From the UHGV virus genome UHGV-0209657: a DNA stretch of 55,055 bases; one strand, 5' to 3'. This DNA is from a virus. The notes beneath the pieces were generated by a model. That model ran no database searches. It was not told where the DNA came from and worked only from the letters and a program-made list of their open reading frames with translations. Positions within the stretch are counted from its first letter, which is position 1. The number at the start of each line of letters is the position of its first letter. Positions 4,470 through 52,451 of the stretch are shown one piece after another. Both the position numbers and the translations under genes were made by a program.

Positions 4470-4807
4470 AATCTGATCTCCGTATATCCTTGATGATACT
4501 TAATAAAAAATCATCTTCGTTAATTGCCGCACTTCCAGCGGCTGACCAGATTGTTAATGAGCGGCTTAACATCTTTCAACTAATCCCGCAATCATCGCCG
4601 TTCCCGGCGTGACCTTGCTCACTCCAAGCAAGCTGACTCGTCGCCTTGCGTGCGGTTTCGTGGGGGATGTAACGCTTTAAACACCCCATGCGCCTTGTTA
4701 TCAGTGCCGCTTTCGGTCCCCCATCGGGGAGTTACTCCACGGTTGACAAGGTGTTAAGCCTGATTTTTAAAGTGCCAGGAAGTTGCTTTTGTTACCTGCG
4801 ACCTTCC

Positions 4808-4836
4808 TTTGACTCGCAATATACGCCCCGTAAAAC
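4808..4836 (-). promoter_or_regulatory. candidate leftward early promoter (TTGACT - 17 nt - TATATT)
   Basis: Read on minus strand: -35 at 4831-4836, -10 at 4808-4813, between cI and the leftward operon. Confidence 0.4.
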
Positions 4837-4935
4837 ATCGAGTCAATCCATTTTGTATACTTTTTTAAAATATTTTATATGCTATTGATATTTAAACAAT
4901 AAATAACGTTTTCTGTTTACGTTTTGGCGTTTTCC

Positions 4936-5617: not shown

Positions 5618-5676
5618 GTCGCTACCCTATAACCTCAAAAAGTTTGATGCAAGTCACAAAACGTGTATTTTAAGCC

Positions 5677-5704
5677 TTGATCTTAAAATTCCATTTTGTA
5701 AACT
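5677..5704 (+). promoter_or_regulatory. candidate rightward early promoter (TTGATC - 16 nt - TAAACT)
   Basis: Sigma70-like hexamers in cI-cro intergenic region; spacer ends with CCATTTTG. Confidence 0.4.
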
Positions 5705-5741: not shown

Positions 5742-5922
5742 GAAAAAGATAACTGAAGGCACAAAAAGGCACTTACCTTATGCTCTTTAAAAATCCGGTG
5801 TCGCTGCGAAGCGAAAAACAAATATCACGCAACGGCGGGATCTGTTGAGCGGTCAGTCACTGCTATCTAATGCTAATGGGATGCCCGCCCGCGCGTTCAC
5901 TCTAACCATAGGAGAAAATGCG

Positions 5923-8851: not shown

Positions 8852-9970
8852 ATGTCACAAAGAAAGATCAGCGATGAGGAACTGATCGCCGAGTACAACA
8901 AGGGGAAAACTTACAAGCAAATAGCAGAAGAATATGGAATGGCAAAACGCAACGTCGAACGCCTGGGCGCACGGTTGGCGAAACGCGGTTTAATATCCAC
9001 GCGTCGCGCGCCGGGCTTTGGCGTCAATGGTGAGTCATTGCTCGTCGATAAGGATGGCAATGTGATTATGCGCTGGATTAAAACAGCCCGTGATCGCGAT
9101 GAAATGGAAAGGCTAATGCAAGCGGCTTGCGATGCTTTCACGGAAGACATGCCACGCGCGGAGGCCGTGCCAGTGCCGGAAATTGATTTCCAAAAAAGCC
9201 TGGCCCTTTATCCGGTATTCGATCTGCATATCGGGGCGCTTGCTCATAAAGCTGAATGCGGTGAGAGCTACGACACCGGGATCGCTGAACGCGTGCTAAA
9301 TGATTTCTTTGACTACGCGGTAGGCGCAGCGCCGATGTCTGAAAAAGCTGTATTGCTTCTCGGTGGGGATGTTCTTCACACTGATGGGCTGTTGCCAGTG
9401 ACGCCATCAAGCAATCACGTACTTGATTGCGATTCACGCTACGCAAAACTTGTTTATGTGGCGATCCGGTCAGTCCGCCGTGCTGTAGGAAAGATGTTGT
9501 TAAACCACAAAGAAATCGAAATCCAGGTATTATCAGGTAATCACGATCAGTCGGGGATGATTTGGCTACGTGCTGCGCTGGCGGCTTTTTACGAAGATGA
9601 ACCGCGCGTAACGGTTGACGTGTCACCTGCTATCGTACACCACACACAGTACGGCAAAACATTCCTTGCTTACCACCACGGACACACCATCAAAAAACCA
9701 GAAAATTTGTTGTCTGCCTGCGTCTCTGACTGGCGGGAAGATTTCGGTAAGTCTGCGGCGGTTTATGCTCATTGCGGGCACTGGCACCACCAACGGTTGA
9801 TTGAATCATCGTTAGGCGTTGTTGAGTATCACGGCACGTTAGCGGGCAAAGACGCTTATTCAACGAATGGCGGCTGGCGGTCGCGGCGTCTGGCGGCGGT
9901 AATAATTTACAGTCCTGATCACGGGGAAATCGGGCGCTTTGTTTATTACCCTGAATATTCCATTTTGTAA
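8852..9970 (+). CDS. HTH-domain protein fused to calcineurin-like metallophosphoesterase (GNHD type)
   Basis: N-terminal HTH; motifs DLHIG, GGDVLHTD, GNHD, GHWHH in canonical order; ATG at 8852 with GGAGG RBS. Confidence 0.55.
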   Translation: MSQRKISDEELIAEYNKGKTYKQIAEEYGMAKRNVERLGARLAKRGLISTRRAPGFGVNGESLLVDKDGNVIMRWIKTARDRDEMERLMQAACDAFTEDMPRAEAVPVPEIDFQKSLALYPVFDLHIGALAHKAECGESYDTGIAERVLNDFFDYAVGAAPMSEKAVLLLGGDVLHTDGLLPVTPSSNHVLDCDSRYAKLVYVAIRSVRRAVGKMLLNHKEIEIQVLSGNHDQSGMIWLRAALAAFYEDEPRVTVDVSPAIVHHTQYGKTFLAYHHGHTIKKPENLLSACVSDWREDFGKSAAVYAHCGHWHHQRLIESSLGVVEYHGTLAGKDAYSTNGGWRSRRLAAVIIYSPDHGEIGRFVYYPEYSIL

Positions 9971-17535: not shown

Positions 17536-17732
17536 CGCAATAACTCCGTTTTGTTAATTAACTAAACAATTCTACCATTTTGTGATCTGTGTTACACTTT
17601 GGGCTTATACATAATGTATTTTTTGATCTATATCAACATACGAAATGATAGCTTCTGCGGTGATTTGCTCATCGGATGGGTGGATCATCACGAACAACAA
17701 ATGACAGTAAAACAAACAGTAAGGTGAATACA

Positions 17733-23532: not shown

Positions 23533-24206
23533 TTGTCAGATCTCCATATTGAATGCGTTTGTCGAACATACGCGGGCCGCATTTGCTCGCGGCGGCTTAG
23601 CAGTCCGGCATTGTCATGATGCAAAACAGTGTTATCGCCCAGGTAAATCATCGCGTGACATGGGTCAGCACCCTTGAACGGCTGGCGAATAATCACGTCA
23701 CCAGGCTGAATGCTTTGCGCATCAACCATGAAAAACCCGTTCAATGGCAGGTTTTTTATGTACAGGTTTTCCCCACGCAGCCACCACCCATCGTGGCGTT
23801 CAAAGTCAGGCAGATCCACGCCGCAAAGGTGATAGGCGTCACGAAAAAGCGAGTAGCAATCTGTTTTCCCGTGTTCAAATTTACGGCCTAACAGGTGCGC
23901 CACCGGGCGGAATTTCCTCACCATGCCACCGGAACATAAAAACCACGGCAGGCCGGAAATAACCTGCTGTTGTCGATCCCGTGCCGACAATACCGGAATA
24001 TCTTCAACGTGAGAGTGGAAAACGGCTGTTATAACGCCCAATTCGTCAGCTTTGATATAATCGTCAGGCGAGATTTTAAAGCTGTTGTGCGGCGTTTCAG
24101 ACACGTTAGCGCACGGGTAAAAATAATCGTTATCTATCACCAGCCCGCACACTTCCTCGCGCGGGTGGGCTGCTGCATAGCGAATCATTTTATCTTCAAG
24201 TGCCAT
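23475..24206 (-). CDS. K: tail assembly protein K (JAB/MPN plus NlpC/P60-like)
   Basis: Strong recalled similarity to lambda K (EEVCGL, FEHGxTDCYxLFRDAYHL); ATG at 24204-24206. Confidence 0.8.
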   Translation of the reverse strand: MALEDKMIRYAAAHPREEVCGLVIDNDYFYPCANVSETPHNSFKISPDDYIKADELGVITAVFHSHVEDIPVLSARDRQQQVISGLPWFLCSGGMVRKFRPVAHLLGRKFEHGKTDCYSLFRDAYHLCGVDLPDFERHDGWWLRGENLYIKNLPLNGFFMVDAQSIQPGDVIIRQPFKGADPCHAMIYLGDNTVLHHDNAGLLSRREQMRPAYVRQTHSIWRSDKCSNLDLRAIFEDITAKCV

Positions 24207-24208
24207 AA

Positions 24209-24913
24209 TCAACCCACCTTGCTCGATCCTGGGAAACATGAAATTGGTAACGGATTCGGGCGCGGGAAACGTAAACGGCAACCGCTCAGGCGGTGGCTGC
24301 ATTTATCCAGCTTTGGATCGCTGGTCGATTCGTCTTTATCAGTAGCTACAGGGCCGCCACTGTATCCGCAACCGTCGCCGCGATATTGCCATTGGCAAAC
24401 GTCAGCAAGGATTGTGCGCCCTGGGATAACCGCCTTGTCAGCATCAATTGGCGTTGACAGCTCATATTGCACCTGGTCGGCTGTTTCTTCGCTCATCGCC
24501 TCAACGACGTAAAAAGACACCGCCTCGATAGACGGATCTGCATCCGGGTTGCCGTTGGGGAAGTTGATGGCGTCCAGGTATTTTACTTCCACCTGGCGGC
24601 GTGTAACTTTCATTCCTCGCAGGTCGTTGAAATCGTTATTCATCCCGGTGATTAGGCCGCCAATGTTGGCTACAACCATTTGCGGGCGTGAATAGACACC
24701 CTCGTTTTTCATTTCGAAGCCAGTGGCCTCGATAGGGTAGCTGTTGTAAGCCACCCCCTTCCAGATAACCGGGCCGTAATAGCCATTCACGCCGGAATGG
24801 AAGCGGATAACCTCGCCACCCAGGGGCGTGAGGTCTAATTCAAACAAGTCAATTACCGCGCCGACTCCGGCATCGACGGAATCAATAATCATTTCTCTCG
24901 GAATATTGCGCAT
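24209..24913 (-). CDS. L: minor tail protein L
   Basis: Recalled similarity to lambda L (TGFE, YLDAINFPNGN, CxxxLSGC). Confidence 0.85.
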   Translation of the reverse strand: MRNIPREMIIDSVDAGVGAVIDLFELDLTPLGGEVIRFHSGVNGYYGPVIWKGVAYNSYPIEATGFEMKNEGVYSRPQMVVANIGGLITGMNNDFNDLRGMKVTRRQVEVKYLDAINFPNGNPDADPSIEAVSFYVVEAMSEETADQVQYELSTPIDADKAVIPGRTILADVCQWQYRGDGCGYSGGPVATDKDESTSDPKLDKCSHRLSGCRLRFPRPNPLPISCFPGSSKVG

Positions 24914-25042
24914 TTTCTCACCTTGTCATTCTGTGATCTGCGTCACGCTAAATCATACCAAAATGGATTGATCGCGGTTTTTACAATATGTATATTTTAC
25001 TCAAACGGAAGCATAGTTAACAAAATGGCGCGGAGGTGCGTT

Positions 25043-25231
25043 ATGACTGAAAAGCTATGGAAGTTGACGGTATTCATGACAGACGGTAGGGAAAAGGTTA
25101 TCGCCCTGTATGACGACGAGGGTGAAGCATTGGTTGACGCGCTTTTACTTGCTGAGGATGACCGCCTTTTGGGATACCAGATCGAACCTGTCAAATATGA
25201 GGCTAACAAAAATGAAAAAATACAGTCTTGA
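25043..25231 (+). CDS. hypothetical protein (62 aa), moron cassette gene 1
   Basis: GGAGG RBS; opposite strand to flanking tail genes. Confidence 0.35.
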   Translation: MTEKLWKLTVFMTDGREKVIALYDDEGEALVDALLLAEDDRLLGYQIEPVKYEANKNEKIQS

Positions 25232-25559
25232 TGTGTGGTTAAGTGGTAGCAAGGAGTGTTTCGGATTATTTGATAGCGAAGAAGTAGCCCTGGAAGAAGG
25301 CAGGATTCTTGAATGTAGTTTAGGCCATCCAGTGAAATATGCTGCTAATCCGGTACAGATAGTTGATGAGGTGGAAGATATGAACCCGAAAGATATTAAT
25401 GGTAGCTTCACTGCTTATTATGCAGATTCTATGGACCAGTCTTGCCCTGGTGAAATACACGCAAAAGGTTTCCCGGCTGACGATCCAGAAGCAAAACGCG
25501 AATACGAAAAAGCGGCGAAAGATTTCTGTATCGATAACCTTTCAGCATTCGATAAATAA
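25212..25559 (+). CDS. hypothetical protein (115 aa), moron cassette gene 2
   Basis: ATG overlapping upstream gene end. Confidence 0.35.
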   Translation: MKKYSLDVWLSGSKECFGLFDSEEVALEEGRILECSLGHPVKYAANPVQIVDEVEDMNPKDINGSFTAYYADSMDQSCPGEIHAKGFPADDPEAKREYEKAAKDFCIDNLSAFDK

Positions 25560-25568
25560 GGCGGCAAC

Positions 25569-25817
25569 ATGGGGCGGCGCAATCACGGTGATTATGTGTA
25601 CACGTTGAAACAGGCCGCCCGCCTCATCGGTTATCATGAACACGAATTTATTGATTTGCTGATTGAGCGCGGGATACTGTACCAGGTCTGTTTAACGCTG
25701 TACCCGAAAGCGAAATACCTACATGAAAAGTTATTCATCATCATGACGGATGAAAACCAGGTTAACCATTCATTCGTCACTGATAAGGGCGTTAATTATC
25801 TGCGTGATAACTTATAG
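25569..25817 (+). CDS. hypothetical protein (82 aa), possible HTH, moron cassette gene 3
   Basis: Segment YTLKQAARLIGYHEHEFIDLLIERGIL looks HTH-like. Confidence 0.35.
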   Translation: MGRRNHGDYVYTLKQAARLIGYHEHEFIDLLIERGILYQVCLTLYPKAKYLHEKLFIIMTDENQVNHSFVTDKGVNYLRDNL

Positions 25818-25940
25818 GTGACTGATTATAAAAATAGAAGTTTTGGCGCTAATAATAATGGGGTTGATAGTATTTGGCGTTCATGCTGTAGATCTGGACT
25901 GGAAAACGATAGCAGAAAATATAGCATTAATGGAAATAGA

Positions 25941-25975
25941 ATAAAAATAACCCCGCTTCGCGCGGGGTCGTGTTT
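25941..25975. terminator. hairpin terminator between moron cassette and tail gene M
   Basis: CCCCGC-ttcgc-GCGGGG preceded by A-run. Confidence 0.45.
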
Positions 25976-26171
25976 ATACGCCATCAACCAAAAATAAAAC
26001 CTCCTTCCCTTCCCGGGATCTACACCCAACGTACCCATCACCAACGTCGTGAAGATACCATATATCGCCGTTGTCAGCTTTTACAGTAAGGTCGTTGATC
26101 TCATAGTCGTCAAACAATGTAAAAGCGTAAGTTTTGTCAACTACACAAGTCCCGTACATAACAACCCCCAT
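25974..26171 (-). CDS. hypothetical protein (65 aa) downstream of M
   Basis: ATG overlaps M stop; same strand as tail genes. Confidence 0.35.
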   Translation of the reverse strand: MGVVMYGTCVVDKTYAFTLFDDYEINDLTVKADNGDIWYLHDVGDGYVGCRSREGKEVLFLVDGV

Positions 26172-26524
26172 TAGCCAACAACTTGCTCAAACGTTGCGTT
26201 TAGCGTGTACAAAGGCCCGTCTTTAGTCATGCTCCATTGCCGACAGACAAAAAGCCTTTGCACGTTATCCATTGACGGCGACCAGTAAAAAGCCTCGACC
26301 GCGCCGCGCGCCCTCAAGAATGCTTCCGCCTGGATTGCTACGTTTCCACCATCACCACATCCGGCGCTACTGCCTTTAAACACCAGGGTGTAGCTATCAA
26401 GCAATGGATTGATACCTTTTACCTGTCTTTGCTCATAACCATCGCCCAGCTTAACAACAGATACGTCTGGCTTCCTGGTCACGCTGTAGCTTCTTTGCGG
26501 CGTCCATCTGAACACTTCCGGCAT
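26171..26524 (-). CDS. M: minor tail protein M
   Basis: 117 aa, position between H and L. Confidence 0.75.
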   Translation of the reverse strand: MPEVFRWTPQRSYSVTRKPDVSVVKLGDGYEQRQVKGINPLLDSYTLVFKGSSAGCGDGGNVAIQAEAFLRARGAVEAFYWSPSMDNVQRLFVCRQWSMTKDGPLYTLNATFEQVVG

Positions 26525-26622
26525 AAAACCCCCACAAGTTACATTTTGTATATATCTTTACGCGCTTCTACGCGAAAAATAAGATCATTGTCACAATGAT
26601 TATAGCTAGTTTACAAAATGGA

Positions 26623-26651
26623 TTCACATAGCACGCAACAAGATGTATATA
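26623..26651 (+). promoter_or_regulatory. candidate sigma70 promoter for moron cassette (TTCACA - 17 nt - TATATA)
   Basis: Hexamers with 17-nt spacer about 40 nt upstream of AAGGAGG RBS. Confidence 0.3.
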
Positions 26652-26691
26652 GAAAGCAAGAAGAAAGTAGTACCAACGAAGGAGGCCCAAA

Positions 26692-26847
26692 ATGAAACGC
26701 TATGTAGTAGTAATGCTAAATAACGCATTCGAACAAGTGGAAATAGCAATCGTTAAGGGTTTCGACGACGCATTCAAATACGGTCAATTCATGATGAATG
26801 CGAAAGAAGATGAATACCGGGACTTCTTCCTGAAGGCACTTAACTAA
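26692..26847 (+). CDS. hypothetical protein (51 aa), moron
   Basis: Strong AAGGAGG RBS; opposite strand within tail operon. Confidence 0.35.
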   Translation: MKRYVVVMLNNAFEQVEIAIVKGFDDAFKYGQFMMNAKEDEYRDFFLKALN

Positions 26848-26864
26848 GGATGATGGGGTGAGTT

Positions 26865-27119
26865 ATGAAACTGGTAGCGATTGACAGAAATCTGAAAGCA
26901 CAGAAAAACGCACAGGACCGGATCATCAAGAAAGGTAAGGAATTACTTAAAGCCTTTCTGAGAAAAGAAGTTTACCCCAAAAAGTTACGCGACGGTTACG
27001 GATACAAAATGGATATCAATCTTGATTGGAGGCTGTTTAGCGAAGATTTGAAGGTTTGGTTAATTGTTGAGCACCATGCCTATAACAAGTTATGTGGCGT
27101 GAAAGGCACTCATAAGTGA
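26865..27119 (+). CDS. hypothetical basic protein (84 aa), moron
   Basis: GGGTGAG RBS; followed by terminator. Confidence 0.35.
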   Translation: MKLVAIDRNLKAQKNAQDRIIKKGKELLKAFLRKEVYPKKLRDGYGYKMDINLDWRLFSEDLKVWLIVEHHAYNKLCGVKGTHK

Positions 27120-27174
27120 GTCGAGATATTCGAAAGGGGATATATCGCGCGGAATGGTCGTTTATAAATACGAA

Positions 27175-27212
27175 AAATAACCCCGGCATTGCACCGGGGT
27201 TTAGTTTATTTG
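27175..27212. terminator. bidirectional hairpin terminator
   Basis: CCCCGG-cattgca-CCGGGG flanked by A-rich and T-rich runs. Confidence 0.55.
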
Positions 27213-29548
27213 CGGCGAGGTTGCAACATTCCGCCTGGTCTTTGAGATTCCCTTGTTATCATTTTCATGGCTACACGTTCCATTGTTAATTCAAGTCTGC
27301 GGCTGTCTTCGTCGCTGAATCCGTTCGTGGTCTGAATGCTGATACTGACAGGCATACTAATACCGCCACCGCCGCCAATATCACGGCCCGGAATAACTCT
27401 GCCGTTCTCGCCAGGGATCATATATTGATTGCCGTTAGATGTCTGGAATAGCTCCGGCCTGTTGTGTTCCCCTACGCGGTACATATTACCACCAATGACG
27501 CTACCACCATTAAAGCGACCGCCGCCGAAAATTGACGTAGCCAGCGACATGATCGCAGTGAGCGCCGCCGAACCAGCCGCCGCCCAGCTACCGCCAGTTG
27601 ACGCCGCAGTTGCCGCCGCTGCTGGGGCCGCCGCCGCAGCAATGCTTCCCTGAGCTGCTACCGCGCTTGCTGTTGTACTTGTTTGCGTGGCCTTGCTTTG
27701 TGTCTCCATCATGATCTGATCTGCTATCCAGTTTGCAGCTATGTCTGAGAGTCTGTTACCGATATTGCCGAGTATATTGCTTCCTAAGTTAGCAAAAACA
27801 TCACTCAATGATTGAGTGCCGTTTAACAGGCCAACAAGTGCATTGCTCATACCACCTTTAAGGCCATTAACGCAATCACCGATAAGGCTGTTTGTGTCGC
27901 TTTGCGCCTGCCATTGCTCCCACTTCAGATCGCGGATCTGTTGCTCATAGGCTAACAGTTCCTGTTTCTGTTGCGCTTCCGTCACGCCCAGGTCGATAAG
28001 CATTTGCTTACGGACGGCCCATTCATTTTGAACCTGCTGAATAGGGTCTACTTCGCCCTTTAGCTGATCCATCGGGCTTACTATTTGCTCCCATTTGTCG
28101 CGCAATTCCTCTACCGGAATTTGTGCTAATTCTTCCTTTAGTTCCTTACCTATCCCTTTTTGCGCGGCGCGGTACTCAAGGAGAGTGATTTTACCCTGGG
28201 CGAATGCAGCATCAATGGCCTTGCCGCTCTCTAACGCTTTGCGCATAGCGGCGGCGTCTTTGTTGTACTGGTCAGAAACGCTTATACCTTTATCGCCAAG
28301 ACGATCAGCTTCAGATTTCTTCTCTTTTTTCTGTTTTTTCGGTTTGTCTACTGGCTTGTCGAATCCGGTAATCGCTCCGTCATTGGCGGCATTCTGTTCA
28401 TTTTTCCTTGCTTCTTCTGTAGCCTGGATTGCTGCGGTCAGATCATCCTGTAGTTGCATGACCTTGCCAACGGTCTTACCGTATTTCTTCTCGTAGTTGC
28501 TGTTATATTCGTCGGTTTGCTCTCCTACGACCTCCTTCATCCATTTGTAGGCATCCATTAGTGCCTTGATTGGCGTCACCATTGCGATGATCTTCTCGGC
28601 TACCTCGCCAGCCTTGATTCTGACATCTTCAAACATGTCGATGAATTCGCCACCAGCCGTCTTCAGGGTGTTAAAGCAGGTTTTAGCGAAATCAGCGCCT
28701 TCACCTAAAGCCTTAACACCTTTCGTTACAAGATCGATACCAGCAACAACCGTATCGGATACACCGAAAAGATCATCCAATTGCTCAATAAGTCCCATAA
28801 CCTCGACTTTAAGCTCATTCAGGGCCATGCCGGATGTGCGCGGCAACTGCGCAAACTTCTCGTTTGTTTCCTGCGTAGCCGCCTGGATTGCGTTAACCAT
28901 CCTTTCTGCCGTGATCTTACCGTCCAGCATTTCGGCGCGGAATTGGCCCATTGATAACCCCATCTGGCGTGCCATTGTCTGTACGATGGTCGGGGTGTTT
29001 TCTAACAGGCTGTTGAATTCTTCAGCACGCAACACGCCACCGTCGATAGACTGACGGAATTGACGCATTGAGTTTGACATCTGCTCCGCTGACGCGCCGC
29101 CCAACGCCCCCATTTTCTGAATCGTACCTACCAGGTTAAGCAATTGCCCTTCAGTGGCGGACGTGTTCTTCAGTGAGATAGCTAAGCCTTGCCACAGATC
29201 CCCGGTATCCTTCATGCTTTGGCCTGTTTCTTTTGATATTGCTTTCAGGCCATCAAAAACCCGTCCGGCGGACTCCGCATCGCCCGTAAGCATTTTGATT
29301 TTTACGCGAAGCATTTTTGCTTGCTCCGCCATATCCATAAATTGACGCACGGCCTCCGCAGCAATTAGCAAATGGATAACCCTGGTCAGTGCCTTGATGG
29401 ATGTTTTCAGGGTGTTTACCTGGCGGTCAGCCTGTTTTGCGCCGCGCTCTATACGCCCAAAGGCCTGGTCTGCCTGTCGTTGTGCAACGAGAAGTTGACC
29501 AGTTTTCGCATCAACTTCGTAATAAATTGTACCTACACTGGTAGCCAT
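27206..29548 (-). CDS. H: tail tape measure protein
   Basis: 780 aa, coiled-coil/Ala-Gly-rich, upstream of M-L-K-I-J. Confidence 0.85.
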   Translation of the reverse strand: MATSVGTIYYEVDAKTGQLLVAQRQADQAFGRIERGAKQADRQVNTLKTSIKALTRVIHLLIAAEAVRQFMDMAEQAKMLRVKIKMLTGDAESAGRVFDGLKAISKETGQSMKDTGDLWQGLAISLKNTSATEGQLLNLVGTIQKMGALGGASAEQMSNSMRQFRQSIDGGVLRAEEFNSLLENTPTIVQTMARQMGLSMGQFRAEMLDGKITAERMVNAIQAATQETNEKFAQLPRTSGMALNELKVEVMGLIEQLDDLFGVSDTVVAGIDLVTKGVKALGEGADFAKTCFNTLKTAGGEFIDMFEDVRIKAGEVAEKIIAMVTPIKALMDAYKWMKEVVGEQTDEYNSNYEKKYGKTVGKVMQLQDDLTAAIQATEEARKNEQNAANDGAITGFDKPVDKPKKQKKEKKSEADRLGDKGISVSDQYNKDAAAMRKALESGKAIDAAFAQGKITLLEYRAAQKGIGKELKEELAQIPVEELRDKWEQIVSPMDQLKGEVDPIQQVQNEWAVRKQMLIDLGVTEAQQKQELLAYEQQIRDLKWEQWQAQSDTNSLIGDCVNGLKGGMSNALVGLLNGTQSLSDVFANLGSNILGNIGNRLSDIAANWIADQIMMETQSKATQTSTTASAVAAQGSIAAAAAPAAAATAASTGGSWAAAGSAALTAIMSLATSIFGGGRFNGGSVIGGNMYRVGEHNRPELFQTSNGNQYMIPGENGRVIPGRDIGGGGGISMPVSISIQTTNGFSDEDSRRLELTMERVAMKMITRESQRPGGMLQPRRK

Positions 29549-29602
29549 GATTTAACCTCATGCAAAAATGTGATCTGTGTATCTATTTTATACAAAATGG
29601 CT

Positions 29603-29631
29603 TTACTTCAACGACTCCATTTTGTATAAAG
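29603..29631 (+). promoter_or_regulatory. candidate sigma70 promoter for lipoprotein moron (TTTACT - 17 nt - TATAAA)
   Basis: Hexamers with 17-nt spacer; inverted repeat TACAAAATGG/CCATTTTGTA overlaps; CRP-like half-site at 29569. Confidence 0.4.
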
Positions 29632-29675
29632 AAGCCAAAGGGAATGGTCAGTAAATCAAGTTAGCGTGGTGGGTT

Positions 29676-30335
29676 ATGAAACGGTTAGCAAAAGTGGCAA
29701 TGATTGCGGCGGTATTGGGTCTGGTTGGTTGCAATGAGGATAATGAAAAAGCGCCTATAGTGACCACTCAAGAACAACAAGCATTAGCAGAGAAAAATGC
29801 TAAATGGCTTGCAGAACAACAAGCAAAACAAGCCGCATATGAGGCACAGTTAGCAAAAGAAAAAGCTGGTAAACAGTGGCTTGTGGTCGAAAGAAAAGAT
29901 GATATGCAGGACACAAAAAACGTGTTCCTTTTCGTGAAAGCAGAACATTTCAGCGGAAGTCTTGATGCTTTCCCTACACTGAAAGCACGGGATGAAAACA
30001 AACCTGTATTAACAATCGCTTGCCAGGGTAATAAAACAAAAATGTTCGTAGCATGGTCAAACCATGTAACTGACGCTGGGGACACTACTTATATTAACTA
30101 CCGGATCGGCGATCACAAAGCTGTAGCTACTGAATGGAGTCGGTCAACTAACTATAAAGCTCTTGGATTATGGAACGGCAAAAAAGCCATTCCAATGATT
30201 AAAAAACTGGTTAACGAAAAACAATTTATCATTGAAGTAGTGCCGGAAGCTGGCGACATTGAGAAAGCAGTGTTTAACATTGATGGTCTTTATAACCACA
30301 TCGACAAAGTGAAAAACGCTTGCAACTGGAATTAA
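29676..30335 (+). CDS. lipoprotein (signal peptide plus lipobox LVGC)
   Basis: MKRLAKVAMIAAVLGLVGC N-terminus; opposite strand between tape measure and tail chaperone region. Confidence 0.6.
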   Translation: MKRLAKVAMIAAVLGLVGCNEDNEKAPIVTTQEQQALAEKNAKWLAEQQAKQAAYEAQLAKEKAGKQWLVVERKDDMQDTKNVFLFVKAEHFSGSLDAFPTLKARDENKPVLTIACQGNKTKMFVAWSNHVTDAGDTTYINYRIGDHKAVATEWSRSTNYKALGLWNGKKAIPMIKKLVNEKQFIIEVVPEAGDIEKAVFNIDGLYNHIDKVKNACNWN

Positions 30336-30344
30336 GGGTGAAAC

Positions 30345-30665
30345 ATGAAACGCGATGAATGGATGAGAAAATGGGAACATAAACAAGTAGCATATAATCG
30401 CAAGATGAACCGCGAATTTGACTTCGGTGTCGCAGAGCGTGATTGTGGGTATAAAGGAAATCTAAATGGTGCATATGTTCAACATGTTGGCGATAAACAG
30501 TATTATTACATTGTCAACTTCAACCATGTATTGCACGCAGATCTGGTTGTTATTGATGGGAAAACAAAAATAGTAGCGAATAAACGCATTAATAAGAACG
30601 CAGCAATCAATATATTAACAGTGATTCGCACCCAGATGAATGTGCTTTACAAAAAAATAGCATAA
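30345..30665 (+). CDS. hypothetical protein (106 aa), co-transcribed with lipoprotein
   Basis: 9 nt downstream of lipoprotein gene; followed by terminator. Confidence 0.4.
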   Translation: MKRDEWMRKWEHKQVAYNRKMNREFDFGVAERDCGYKGNLNGAYVQHVGDKQYYYIVNFNHVLHADLVVIDGKTKIVANKRINKNAAINILTVIRTQMNVLYKKIA

Positions 30666-30677
30666 GCGAACTTAACA

Positions 30678-30706
30678 AAAACGCCCGGATCTACCGGGCT
30701 TTTTCT
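30678..30706 (+). terminator. rho-independent terminator after moron pair
   Basis: GCCCGG-atcta-CCGGGC followed by TTTTTCTTG. Confidence 0.55.
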
Positions 30707-31368
30707 TGCTCGCGATTTTTCATTCTTTTTAGTATCTCCATAGCACCATTCATTCCATCGTCATAAGCCTTTTTATCCAGCAATACATTTGGGCGTTTTT
30801 GTTTGTTTCTTGCTTCTGGCGGCGTTTTAGCGCGTACAACGGCCCTATATCCGGTCATTGTCATATTCCATGCTTCTGATTCTGATAACCCCAGGTGAGC
30901 TACGGCAGAATAAACGAATTCCAGCACGTTAAAAGTCGGCTTATATTCCCCTTCCCGGATCTCTCCGGCGTCTTCTTCTGGCCCGTCACCGATTAAACCG
31001 TGGTACATGCAATGTTGTGCCAGCGTGATAACGTCACTGGTCGGCATCAGTCCGGGTTTTAGTCGTAACTTGCCGGAAGAAGTTAACCTACATTCACCCA
31101 ATAACGGGGCTATTTCGTCGTCTGAGCAACATTTCAGGATGCGCATTGACGTTTGTACTATCTCACCATAACACCGCGCCATAATGCGATTGCGGAGGCC
31201 TGGATCTGTAGGCAATCGTGATGGGTATTTGCTGCCGTGGATAAGTGCGAAATATTCGACAAGCTCACTATCGTTGCCGATTTTAGCCATCGCAGCAAAG
31301 CAAGGATTAAACTCATAGCGCTTACCGTTCACCACAGCCGCAAATTGTCCTGTACGAACATGGATCAT
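30691..31368 (-). CDS. putative tail assembly chaperone (positional)
   Basis: Between major tail protein and tape measure; ATG at 31366-31368 with AAGGTGA RBS. Confidence 0.35.
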   Translation of the reverse strand: MIHVRTGQFAAVVNGKRYEFNPCFAAMAKIGNDSELVEYFALIHGSKYPSRLPTDPGLRNRIMARCYGEIVQTSMRILKCCSDDEIAPLLGECRLTSSGKLRLKPGLMPTSDVITLAQHCMYHGLIGDGPEEDAGEIREGEYKPTFNVLEFVYSAVAHLGLSESEAWNMTMTGYRAVVRAKTPPEARNKQKRPNVLLDKKAYDDGMNGAMEILKRMKNREQEKAR

Positions 31369-37467: not shown

Positions 37468-38785
37468 TGTCGTTTTCCTCGTCGTCCAGTTCTACTTCCT
37501 GCGTTGGCCCTTCATACCCGGCAGCCTCGCGGATCTCGTCACCGTCGAATACTTGTTCACCTGTGGCGAGACATGCCTGATTGATTTGCGCCATTTTGTA
37601 TGCCGCGTCGAGTAGCTCGGCTTTCGTCATGGCGTTAAGGTCGTCCCACAGTACCGACACGTCGACTGGCATACTGATAAGGCGGAGATCTGCCATCTTG
37701 CGGAATAGTTCCTCAAGCTCGCCTCCTATTTCCTCCCGGCGGGTCATACAGCGGTTATTGAAGTAGCGGAGGTCTTCGGTTGATGCACGCTCACCCTGCT
37801 GATTCCCAACCAGGATACGCGTTGGAATGTCGATACCAGCGGCGGCGGTTTGCAGGTTGACGTCATAGGTAGCTGATGGATCCGCCACGGCAGTAACCAG
37901 CGGGCTAACGGTTGCTCCCTGTAATGCCATCATCACATCATTACCTTTATTTATATCCTCTGCCGCTTCATTGAATTTTTCGCGTAGCTCTGCAACGTCG
38001 CAACCGTATGTTGCAGCCAGGGAACGAAAATCAATCTCTTTGTCGAATGAGATAGCCAGTTGACGCGCTGCGTTTTTCAGAAAGGATTCACCGCTACCGC
38101 CTTCCACTTTCTCCAGCGATACAAAAGCGTTATAGGACGGCTCAAGGAAAGCGATGGCATCATCAGAATAATCACCGAAGATAAATATGCGATCTGGATG
38201 TATCTTTCTTGCTATGGTCTTACTGTTAATGCGCTCCTTGTATTCCCACCATGTCGGCAGGCCATAGCTTTCACTTTCCGGATCTTCTTCGAAGTCCTTC
38301 GGTGTAAGAGCACCAGCCCATACAGGGGTAAATTTGGCAATGCCTACACCTTTCGTCACTGGCTGATCCCACGGCTGGTTATCCCTGACGTGAATTAACA
38401 GGCCAGCATAACGACCAATGAGGCGGCGGCGATCGCATTCAGCTATGACGCGCCAGAAACGATTATCAAATCGTTTTTTGATTTCTCTTTCCCACGGCGT
38501 TTCCTTTTTTGCTTTCTCGTCTTCCGTACCTTCGATCAGCGTTGGCCTGGTGCGCCAGCACGTAGTGATGATCTTCTCAATAGCACCGTGAGCGATACCA
38601 CCGCGACGATACAGTTTGTATAAATCGGCATAGGTGATTTCTTCTTTGAATCCGTATTCACTCCACGCAGCATCACGTTTTGCATCAATACCCATTGAGA
38701 ATGGGTTAGCGGCTGCATAGCGGGCAAAGGCCGCCTGTCGTTGTGACAAGGCAGCATTAACCGCCAGTTCTACATTAGATGGCAT
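37412..38785 (-). CDS. portal protein
   Basis: About 457 aa after terminase large subunit; ATG at 38783-38785 with AGGAG RBS; acidic C-terminus. Confidence 0.7.
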   Translation of the reverse strand: MPSNVELAVNAALSQRQAAFARYAAANPFSMGIDAKRDAAWSEYGFKEEITYADLYKLYRRGGIAHGAIEKIITTCWRTRPTLIEGTEDEKAKKETPWEREIKKRFDNRFWRVIAECDRRRLIGRYAGLLIHVRDNQPWDQPVTKGVGIAKFTPVWAGALTPKDFEEDPESESYGLPTWWEYKERINSKTIARKIHPDRIFIFGDYSDDAIAFLEPSYNAFVSLEKVEGGSGESFLKNAARQLAISFDKEIDFRSLAATYGCDVAELREKFNEAAEDINKGNDVMMALQGATVSPLVTAVADPSATYDVNLQTAAAGIDIPTRILVGNQQGERASTEDLRYFNNRCMTRREEIGGELEELFRKMADLRLISMPVDVSVLWDDLNAMTKAELLDAAYKMAQINQACLATGEQVFDGDEIREAAGYEGPTQEVELDDEENDNEGEENNQANTSSRDNAI

Positions 38786-45960: not shown

Positions 45961-46022
45961 TATATAACAAAATGGCACTACCGAAACAATGCCATTTCGT
46001 AAACATTGTGATACAGATCACA
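45961..46022 (-). promoter_or_regulatory. candidate CRP-dependent class I promoter inside island
   Basis: Perfect TGTGA-N6-TCACA at 46007-46022; -35 TTGTTT (45984-45989) and -10 TATATA (45961-45966) on minus strand; CRP centre about 61 nt from inferred start. Confidence 0.35.
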
Positions 46023-52368: not shown

Positions 52369-52429
52369 AGTATACAAAATGGATACACCAGAACAAGGTG
52401 AATAGCGCCATTATGTGATCCACATCACG
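52369..52429 (-). promoter_or_regulatory. candidate promoter with CRP-like site upstream of nin genes
   Basis: -10 TATACT (52369-52374), -35 TTGTTC (52391-52396), TGTGA-N6-TCACg at 52414-52429, within nested inverted repeats. Confidence 0.35.
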
Positions 52430-52451
52430 CAATGGCGCCATTTTGTAAATT

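Follow-up and report, generated by a model that had tools for sequence, protein, structure and literature searches.

What are genes that read against the late operon doing between the minor tail genes L and M of a temperate coliphage, when lambda-type L-M junctions hold no such cassette? The question is raised by the virus genome UHGV-0209657, a stretch of 55,055 nucleotides that we analysed at its full length and call the window. Its sequence places it with the mEp021-like (mEpimmI) coliphages, as a temperate phage or prophage: over 3.3 kb about the locus it is 85-89% identical to mEp554, mEp021, mEp013, mEp010, mEp044, mEp515 and MagusPhagus, and the cassette itself is 100% identical to that of a prophage in Escherichia coli M1/5. 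We read the locus as an autonomous, moron-like accessory operon that lies antisense within the late tail operon and is ancestral to its phage group; to this reading, taken jointly with the steps that we infer below for its control and action, we assign a rough probability of 0.4. The cassette is compact, conserved and experimentally tractable, and the accessory genes of mEp021-type phages are unstudied. Phages of this type have been reported to be as frequent as lambdoid phages in human gut E. coli (PMC11893012).

Three plus-strand open reading frames (ORFs) of 62, 115 and 82 aa, here named orfA, orfB and orfC, occupy the interval between L and M, as an initial annotation of the window had stated; also in place are the hairpin that it described behind them, at 25949-25969, and the minus-strand 65-aa ORF that it described as following M (orfD, 25974-26171; counted from the ATG at 26159, 61 aa). 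Its description of a three-gene cassette was right as to these three ORFs and short in its count, in that the gene slots number four or five. The GC content of the cassette is 0.42, compared with 0.51-0.53 in L and M. What the alignments delineate here is a transcription unit that is conserved and insulated and has a box of the type bound by the cyclic AMP receptor protein (CRP).

Evidence that the ORFs are genes was derived from 7-9 diverged relatives (synonymous divergence 0.46-0.87), in which none of the cassette ORFs contains an internal stop. The ratio of nonsynonymous to synonymous substitution (dN/dS) is 0.21 for orfA, 0.22 for the whole of orfB (0.32 in its N-half and 0.14 in its C-half), 0.066 for orfC and 0.073 for orfD; for comparison, the flanking genes M and L give 0.058 and 0.031, respectively. 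orfA, orfB, orfC and orfD are under purifying selection. The initial annotation had allowed that these ORFs might not be conserved as coding in relatives; they proved to be intact, with dN/dS of 0.07-0.22.

Another key observation concerns the distribution of the cassette. We tabulated gene content over 54 related loci, and at 53 of these the cassette is present in the identical slot. The same layout recurs in 7 sequenced phages, in 34 of the 35 matching complete E. coli genomes, in 44 IMG/VR contigs, and in three further assemblies that carry the most divergent orfC (74% identity). Because 53 of the 54 related loci hold it at the same place, the cassette is, on the evidence of gene order, ancestral to the mEp021/mEpimmI lineage and not a recent insertion; it is 'inserted' only relative to lambda. 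The comparison with related tail modules that had been suggested at the outset therefore returned the same slot and coding-conserved ORFs, and it divides the insertion claim in two: the genes are indeed extra with respect to lambda, and a recent insertion is contradicted by their presence throughout the lineage. As to anatomy, the term moron cassette is borne out by the cassette's own conserved promoter and terminator, its opposite strand and its low GC content, with the same reservation about recency.

The sole locus at which L and M are adjacent is that of E. coli MS 21-1 (NZ_CP146670.1, 3501-3625). This locus keeps the promoter as far as window position 25026 and resumes at 26158, within orfD; the deletion spans 25027-26157, and orfA-C, the terminator and most of orfD are gone. 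We considered whether MS 21-1 might represent an ancestral empty site and rejected this idea: since the promoter is retained and the junction cuts into orfD, leaving it truncated, the locus is a secondary deletion, and as such it supplies a natural, ready-made cassette knockout for comparison.

The promoter region was examined as a footprint in an alignment of 41 distinct sequences. The TTGAT of the -35 element is invariant, and so is the -10 block TACAATATGTATATT (24982-24996), except at 24986 (38/41) and 24989 (40/41). The leader core ACAAAA (25020-25025) is likewise invariant and the remaining leader positions are conserved in 40 of the 41 sequences, even where the first gene has been replaced, whereas the copy of the same element upstream of the -35 (24956-24966) is only partly conserved, with T or C at 24964 and a one-base indel at 24967. 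We rejected the leader ATG in AACAAAATGG as a conserved start or leader peptide, given that the downstream frames and their lengths differ among lineages.

The CRP-like site that the initial annotation had noted is present and evolutionarily constrained, although its coordinates were one base off (24932-24947, not 24933-24948). Its half-sites GTGAT (24933-24937) and TCAC (24943-24946) are invariant, T24932 occurs in 40/41 sequences, and the spacer at 24939-24942 is freely variable (0.87-1.32 bits); invariant half-sites around a free spacer are, in alignment terms, what a dimeric factor of CRP specificity should leave. The most divergent lineage carries a perfect box, TGTGATCTGCATCACA (10/10 core positions). 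Relative to the predicted transcription start, the box is centred at -63.5 in the window, at -62.5 in the mEp021 type and at -61.5 in the divergent type. Class I CRP sites centre at -61.5 (or at -72.5 and further multiples), and lac P1 is a class I CRP-dependent promoter. Like lac P1, the cassette promoter has a TGTGA-N6-TCAC(A/G) box some 61.5-63.5 bp 5' of the predicted start; unlike lac P1, it has a phage-specific 10-mer between box and -35. Furthermore, CRP-like boxes that match at least 9/10 core positions are enriched in the window (7 compared with 1.8 expected).

At the other end of the unit, the hairpin is GC-rich and has a folding energy of -16 to -19 kcal/mol (z -2.8 and -3.4 for the two strands), and a terminator is annotated at this hairpin in mEp021 and mEp554. 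Of its two U-tracts, that on the plus strand is weak and that on the minus (late) strand is the better. Since the late strand has the better U-tract here and also in a second cassette downstream of M in map coordinates (cassette 2, Table 1), late transcription would have to be antiterminated to pass. A scan of 24000-30800 against Rfam, at E up to 1, returned a single sub-threshold snoRNA-like match and hence no known RNA element.

Two further small genes flank this hairpin. Most relatives have a gene for a single-pass hydrophobic peptide of 24-49 aa behind orfC. About 30 relatives carry intact orfE, a single-pass membrane peptide of 38-49 aa (MKIEVLALIIMGLIVFG...) for which mEp554 and WCHEC025970 have an annotation, and in the divergent lineage a 24-aa hydrophobic ORF occupies its slot. 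In the window, the start codon at 25828-25830 is ATA where relatives have ATG, so orfE is probably dead here. On the late strand, orfD is by its arrangement translationally coupled to M, the orfD start overlapping the M stop as TAATG. It is present at 52 of 53 loci and its GC content (0.43) is cassette-like. A PGAP (Prokaryotic Genome Annotation Pipeline) annotation of orfD is absent from several genomes despite a dN/dS of 0.07, and orfD has no lambda counterpart.

Table 1. Coordinates and strands of the features discussed, in window positions.
Feature	Positions	Strand	Remarks
Minor tail protein L (flank)	24209-24913	-	Pfam PF05100 Phage_tail_L, E 9e-72
CRP-like box TGTGATCTGCGTCACG	24932-24947	.	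9/10 core positions
Degenerate upstream element copy TACCAAAATGG, abuts -35	24956-24966	+	near-copy of TACAAAATGG
Sigma-70-type promoter TTGATC-17-TATATT	24968-24996	+	consensus scan; predicted start ~25003
Leader element AACAAAATGGC	25019-25029	+	~+17 to +27
orfA, 62 aa	25043-25231	+	phrog_29559
orfB, 115 aa	25212-25559	+	phrog_38567
orfC, 82 aa, KilAC/ANT	25569-25817	+	Pfam PF03374
orfE remnant, small membrane peptide gene	25828-25944	+	intact ORF in relatives
Hairpin, bidirectional intrinsic terminator	25949-25969	both	folding energy and z-score
orfD, 61-65 aa, acidic	25974-26171	-	phrog_3249, E 1.5e-22
Minor tail protein M (flank)	26171-26524	-	Pfam PF05939 Phage_min_tail, E 1e-27
Sister cassette 2	26580-27201	+	between M and tape-measure gene
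Sister cassette 3	29569-30699	+	after tape-measure gene
10-mer sites	745-754, 4848-4857, 5691-5700, 9960-9969, 26612-26621	mixed	exact or near
10-mer sites, continued	27003-27012, 29591-29626, 37591-37600, 45966-46001, 52373-52447	mixed	exact or near

Of the plus-strand genes, orfC is never missing from the tabulated cassettes and has 88-100% identity there. The suggestion that this third protein is helix-turn-helix-like is upheld by a Pfam ANT/KilAC match (PF03374) of 29.4 bits, above the cut-off of 25.3, in which residues 10-82 align with positions 23-105 of the 108-position profile, and by an AlphaFold2 (AF2) model that is a winged helix (pLDDT, the predicted local distance difference test, 86). 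PGAP also gives orfC the KilAC name, and its label in both GenBank and PGAP is antirepressor. Foldseek returned only weak winged helix-turn-helix matches (E 0.4-1.5, non-significant), the best being of the MerR, BldC and Xis types, and we use these as a hint to fold class only. orfC carries TDKG at residues 71-74 (compare the TxKG motif known from CreP and P1 KilA), and its first KilAC motif reads AARLIG, a partial fit only to AKxLxL. Outside the group, orfC comes closest to the C-terminal parts of larger Rha/Ant proteins from Vibrio, Cronobacter and Hafnia phages (32-38% identity). Searches against PDB sequences gave nothing at E < 0.1, whether the query was a single sequence or a profile.

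Upstream of orfC, at a distance of 9 nt, orfB combines a variable N-domain with a highly conserved C-terminal module (approximately residues 59-115 in an alignment of 44 homologues) whose consensus contains ADSMDQSCPGEIHAKGFPADDPEAKREYEKAAKDFCIDNL. Over the 54 loci the N-domain falls into allele-like classes, with identities of 40-100%; the C-module is present at 53 of 53 loci that have orfC, including those at which the N-domain has been frameshifted away or swapped. In MFDS1019527, for example, the N-domain is lost by frameshift and the C-half is free-standing. An extra gene of 77-79 aa stands ahead of orfC in a few genomes, mEp021 included. AF2 models the N-domain as strand-strand-helix-strand (pLDDT ~90) and the C-half with low confidence; regions that take up their fold on binding a partner show such a combination of conservation and low-confidence modelling. 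A profile search with the orfB alignment against 1.84 billion representatives yielded only 4 clusters below 1e-30, and among the attributable listed matches from word-based and exhaustive profile searches, all are orfB homologues or fragments from this phage group, to which the family, within those matches, appears to be restricted.

Both orfA and orfB are acidic (pI 4.4), and a BLASTP match to orfB (E 7e-5) identifies orfA as paralogous to the N-domain of orfB. orfA has a further in-frame ATG at 25025. In the most divergent lineage the two are fused as a single 172-aa protein, and at three loci orfA is swapped for an unrelated 52-aa gene. The top fold matches, which are weak and non-significant, are T7 Gp2, AcrIC8 and ClpS. 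In several E. coli records NCBI names orfA homologues 'transporter' (e.g. WP_086611599.1), which, for soluble acidic proteins of 51-62 aa, looks like a spurious annotation.

The cassette has two sisters in the tail operon (Table 1), both with a GC content of 0.39-0.40. Cassette 2 has a CRP-like box, TACAAAATGG, a promoter TTCACA-17-TATATA that is strongly conserved (47 distinct sequences), and a bidirectional terminator; its genes (26692-27119) are one of 51 aa and then one of 84 aa whose product resembles ParE toxins (Pfam PF24732, E 9e-12), probably a toxin-antitoxin pair to judge from this match. The promoter of cassette 3 has a half-box, TGTGATCT, and the palindrome TACAAAATGG-N16-CCATTTTGTA, and its genes (29676-30665) encode a 219-aa lipoprotein-like protein with weak VasI/TagO (type VI secretion-associated) similarity and a 106-aa protein; a bidirectional terminator was located by pattern scan at 30683-30699. 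The promoter design common to the three cassettes suggests prophage accessory genes that are tied to host carbon status.

Part of this shared design had been glimpsed as two copies of CAAAATGG near the start of the cassette, which are present at 24959-24966 and 25021-25028; genome-wide there are 16 copies compared with 3.9 expected. CAAAATGG is part of a longer 10-mer, TACAAAATGG, with 10 exact copies compared with 0.19 expected. Most copies stand one base 5' of a -35 hexamer: exact ones do so at 4857(-), 26612, 29591 and 29626(-), near-copies at 745 (TACAAAACGG), 24956 (TACCAAAATGG) and 46001(-) (TACGAAATGG), and another copy is upstream of the repressor gene, at 5700(-). The palindrome is exact at 29591-29626 and occurs as a one-mismatch pair at 45966-46001; in a search of 2.9 million viral contigs in IMG/VR its exact form was found in 18, and the cross-checkable ones, about two thirds of the 18, all belong to this phage group. 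From its placement, TACAAAATGG marks a promoter family that includes the two sister antisense cassettes. As candidate readers we considered the host factors IHF, ArcA, OmpR, CpxR, TyrR and FNR, none of which appears to suit the element; taken as a -10 element in the reverse orientation, the 10-mer agrees with only some of the sites.

We propose the following mode of action. The cassette promoter would fire from the prophage, stimulated by cAMP-CRP in class I geometry, and antiterminated late transcription may run antisense through the cassette and override it in lytic growth. Bearing in mind that CreP, a KilAC protein that stands alone, has a bacteriostatic effect and makes cells filament (bioRxiv 10.1101/2024.01.05.574328), and that the isolated KilAC domain of AriS from Listeria phage phi10403S suppresses the SOS response (PMC9043618), orfC could by analogy be the effector and act on a host process, for example cell division (FtsZ) or RecA/SOS. 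In this way the 'unknown function' of the initial annotation is narrowed through published KilAC precedents, and not settled. orfB may bind or control orfC via its invariant, probably fold-on-binding C-module, either as an antidote or as a trans-acting equivalent of the N-terminal domain of a two-domain antirepressor; orfA and the orfB N-domain would be fast-evolving accessory or specificity domains.

The case for cAMP-CRP input is made by the invariant half-sites, the perfect box of the divergent lineage, the enrichment of boxes and the similar boxes of the sister cassettes. An orfB-orfC partnership is suggested because the C-module accompanies orfC at 53 of 53 loci, the gap between the genes is 9 nt, orfA and orfB can be fused, and a ParE-type pair lies next door; the two genes are adjacent, small, co-oriented and always together, with the candidate antidote first, an arrangement that linkage alone could explain.

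Several findings weigh against the proposed operon and its mode of action. The predicted CRP box centre in the window misses the class I optimum by 1-2 bp, relative to a start that is only predicted. That orfB and orfC occur together may reflect no more than the linkage of adjacent genes. Transfer of function to orfC is weak, because it is only 32-38% identical to known antirepressor KilAC domains and, at 82 aa, is shorter than CreP (103 aa). Searches of PADLOC, NCBIfam and Pfam gave no toxin-antitoxin or defence family match for orfA-orfD, and fold searches gave no significant match for orfC and no significant structural neighbour for orfB. Finally, the cassette promoter resembles an early PL-like promoter at 4818-4857, so that the cassette could be early lytic and not prophage-expressed.

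How does this candidate operon compare with known systems? In lambdoid phages, among them HK97, HK022 and lambda (lom, bor), morons sit amid the late genes as autonomous units with a promoter, gene and terminator of their own. The cassette resembles them in its position between adjacent tail genes, its own sigma-70-type promoter and intrinsic terminator, its lower GC content and a gene content that varies (orfA or orfY, with or without orfX, and orfE kept or lost). It differs from them in that it is multi-gene, antisense to the late operon, fixed in nearly all of the group, in which its KilAC gene counts as a core gene, and one of three with a common promoter design. With CreP, from Acinetobacter baylyi ADP1, orfC shares a single-domain KilAC architecture that lacks an N-terminal partner domain, and a TxKG-type motif; in contrast, orfC is phage-borne in a tail module and preceded by protein-coding partners, whereas CreP is in a CRISPR locus and repressed by CreA RNA. 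Like AriS, orfC has an ANT/KilAC domain, and SOS suppression of the AriS type is compatible with the poor UV inducibility of mEpimmI prophages, most of which are not UV-inducible (PMC11893012). P1/P7 Ant, KilA and the Rha/Bro-N-KilAC antirepressors share their C-terminal KilAC domain with orfC; unlike them, it has no N-terminal domain, is in a tail module instead of an immunity or early region, and is free of c4-type or LexA control. The genes of the cassette are already deposited and partly named, and the operon itself is uncharacterised: the 2025 mEpimmI description of 48 genomes lists a KilAC-like antirepressor among manually defined core genes and is silent on the cassette, on its promoter and on any operators (PMC11893012). 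Two leads stand out, a promoter code common to all three cassettes and a possible pairing of KilAC with a partner; an orfC with an obligate-looking partner could clarify the widespread, poorly understood KilAC domain.

Among the alternatives, we first weigh a unit for lytic host takeover or anti-defence, in which transcription would be early, orfA and orfB would inhibit host DNA-binding or defence proteins, and the KilAC protein would be an early regulator. That orfA and orfB are acidic and lineage-restricted with a fast-evolving N-domain, that the weak top fold matches (T7 Gp2, AcrIC8, ClpS) are small phage inhibitors or adaptors, and that the promoter design is common to the PL-like early promoter that precedes the gp17 antiterminator homologue would all fit such a unit. 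However, dN/dS stays below 0.35 with no sign of positive selection, the antisense position within the late operon and the bidirectional terminators better fit prophage insulation, and the probable toxin-antitoxin pair of the neighbouring cassette is of a type typically expressed in the lysogen. We regard this alternative as unlikely, if still credible.

We are more doubtful of a classical antirepressor, by which orfC, with or without orfB, would bind and inactivate a CI-type repressor (Rep of the phage itself, or the repressor of another prophage in the same cell) and trigger induction or cross-induction. SOS-controlled antirepressors include Tum of phage 186 and those of Gifsy phages, yet the window lacks a LexA box, both at the cassette promoter and elsewhere: there is no perfect CTGT-N8-ACAG, and the one-mismatch sites number 7 compared with 13 expected, none of them at the promoter. 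A strong, constitutive, CRP-boosted promoter for an inducer would destabilise lysogeny, and UV fails to induce most of these phages. P1/P7 Ant and many annotated antirepressors have KilAC as their C-terminal domain, orfB and orfC together have 197 aa, about the size of a two-domain Ant, and orfC bears the antirepressor label of GenBank and PGAP; set against these points, the published activities of isolated KilAC are SOS inhibition and filamentation, and the exact role of AntA/AntB and KilAC is still unclear in the literature (PMC9043618; bioRxiv 10.1101/2024.01.05.574328).

A broader version of the accessory-operon reading is also something of a long shot: the three antisense cassettes would form one regulon, governed by CRP and a reader of TACAAAATGG, with orfB and the KilAC protein as a new effector-antidote pair that damps RecA/SOS or division in the lysogen. 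If true, such damping would explain why mEpimmI phages have a LexA-like cleavable repressor and yet mostly show no UV induction; if the SOS damping is false, an ordinary moron-type accessory operon is left.

It is improbable that orfC is itself the sequence-specific reader of TACAAAATGG and master regulator of a phage-wide regulon, which would take in its own promoter and leader, both sister cassettes and the early and immunity promoters. Its winged-helix model, with weak best matches to the DNA binders MerR, BldC and Xis, would suit that role, as would the 10 exact copies of the 10-mer (0.19 expected), its place one base 5' of the -35 at four exact copies and three near-copies, the two copies at the cassette's own promoter, which are typical of autoregulation, and a composite palindrome confined to this phage group among the cross-checkable contigs from the 2.9 million searched. 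Even so, nothing specifically links orfC to the motif, for which the other helix-turn-helix proteins of the phage (Rep, a MarR-like and an AlpA-like protein) are also available; the element resembles a proximal UP-element subsite as well, the promoters may be paralogous copies, and the MS 21-1 prophage, which lacks orfC, retains the motifs. As for chance reading frames within a long intergenic spacer, short proteins and inconsistent PGAP calling (orfD and orfE are often left unannotated) might suggest them, and they are refuted by dN/dS of 0.07-0.22 in ORFs that are intact in dozens of diverged genomes and have Pfam and PHROG matches, which leaves this explanation next to no probability. In the literature, a search for similar tail morons that run antisense and carry antirepressors found nothing specific.

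Some minor observations on the regulatory sequences of the window may be added. CRP-like boxes lie at 786-801, 5643-5658, 17581-17596, 24932-24947, 46007-46022 and 52414-52429; six of the seven in the window are outside the large ORFs listed, often beside the 10-mer, and a GATC (Dam) site is present in all of them except that at 5643-5658. The PL-like promoter (4818-4857, minus strand) is strong (TTGACT-17-TATATT) and carries the 10-mer and an inverted repeat TTGACTCG-N22-CGAGTCAA (8 bp); a leader of ~350 nt (4470-4820) follows it, and then the homologue of the gp17 antiterminator (96 aa). A boxA/boxB-like sequence (CTCTTTAAAAA and the hairpin TCGCTGCGAAGCGA) lies to the right of the repressor gene, at ~5783-5812. 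Between M and the genes of cassette 2, the block TTACGCGNTTCTACGCGAAAAAT (26540-26580) is almost invariant, a one-mismatch 10-mer, TACAAAATGT (26541-26550, minus strand), stands directly 5' of the M ribosome-binding site, and an 8-1-8 palindrome, ATCATTGTCACAATGAT, lies upstream of the cassette 2 genes in this window. In E. coli M1/5, PGAP calls a 457-aa protein (2704898-2706271), encoded beside a minor head protein gene, 'anti-CBASS protein Acb1 family'.

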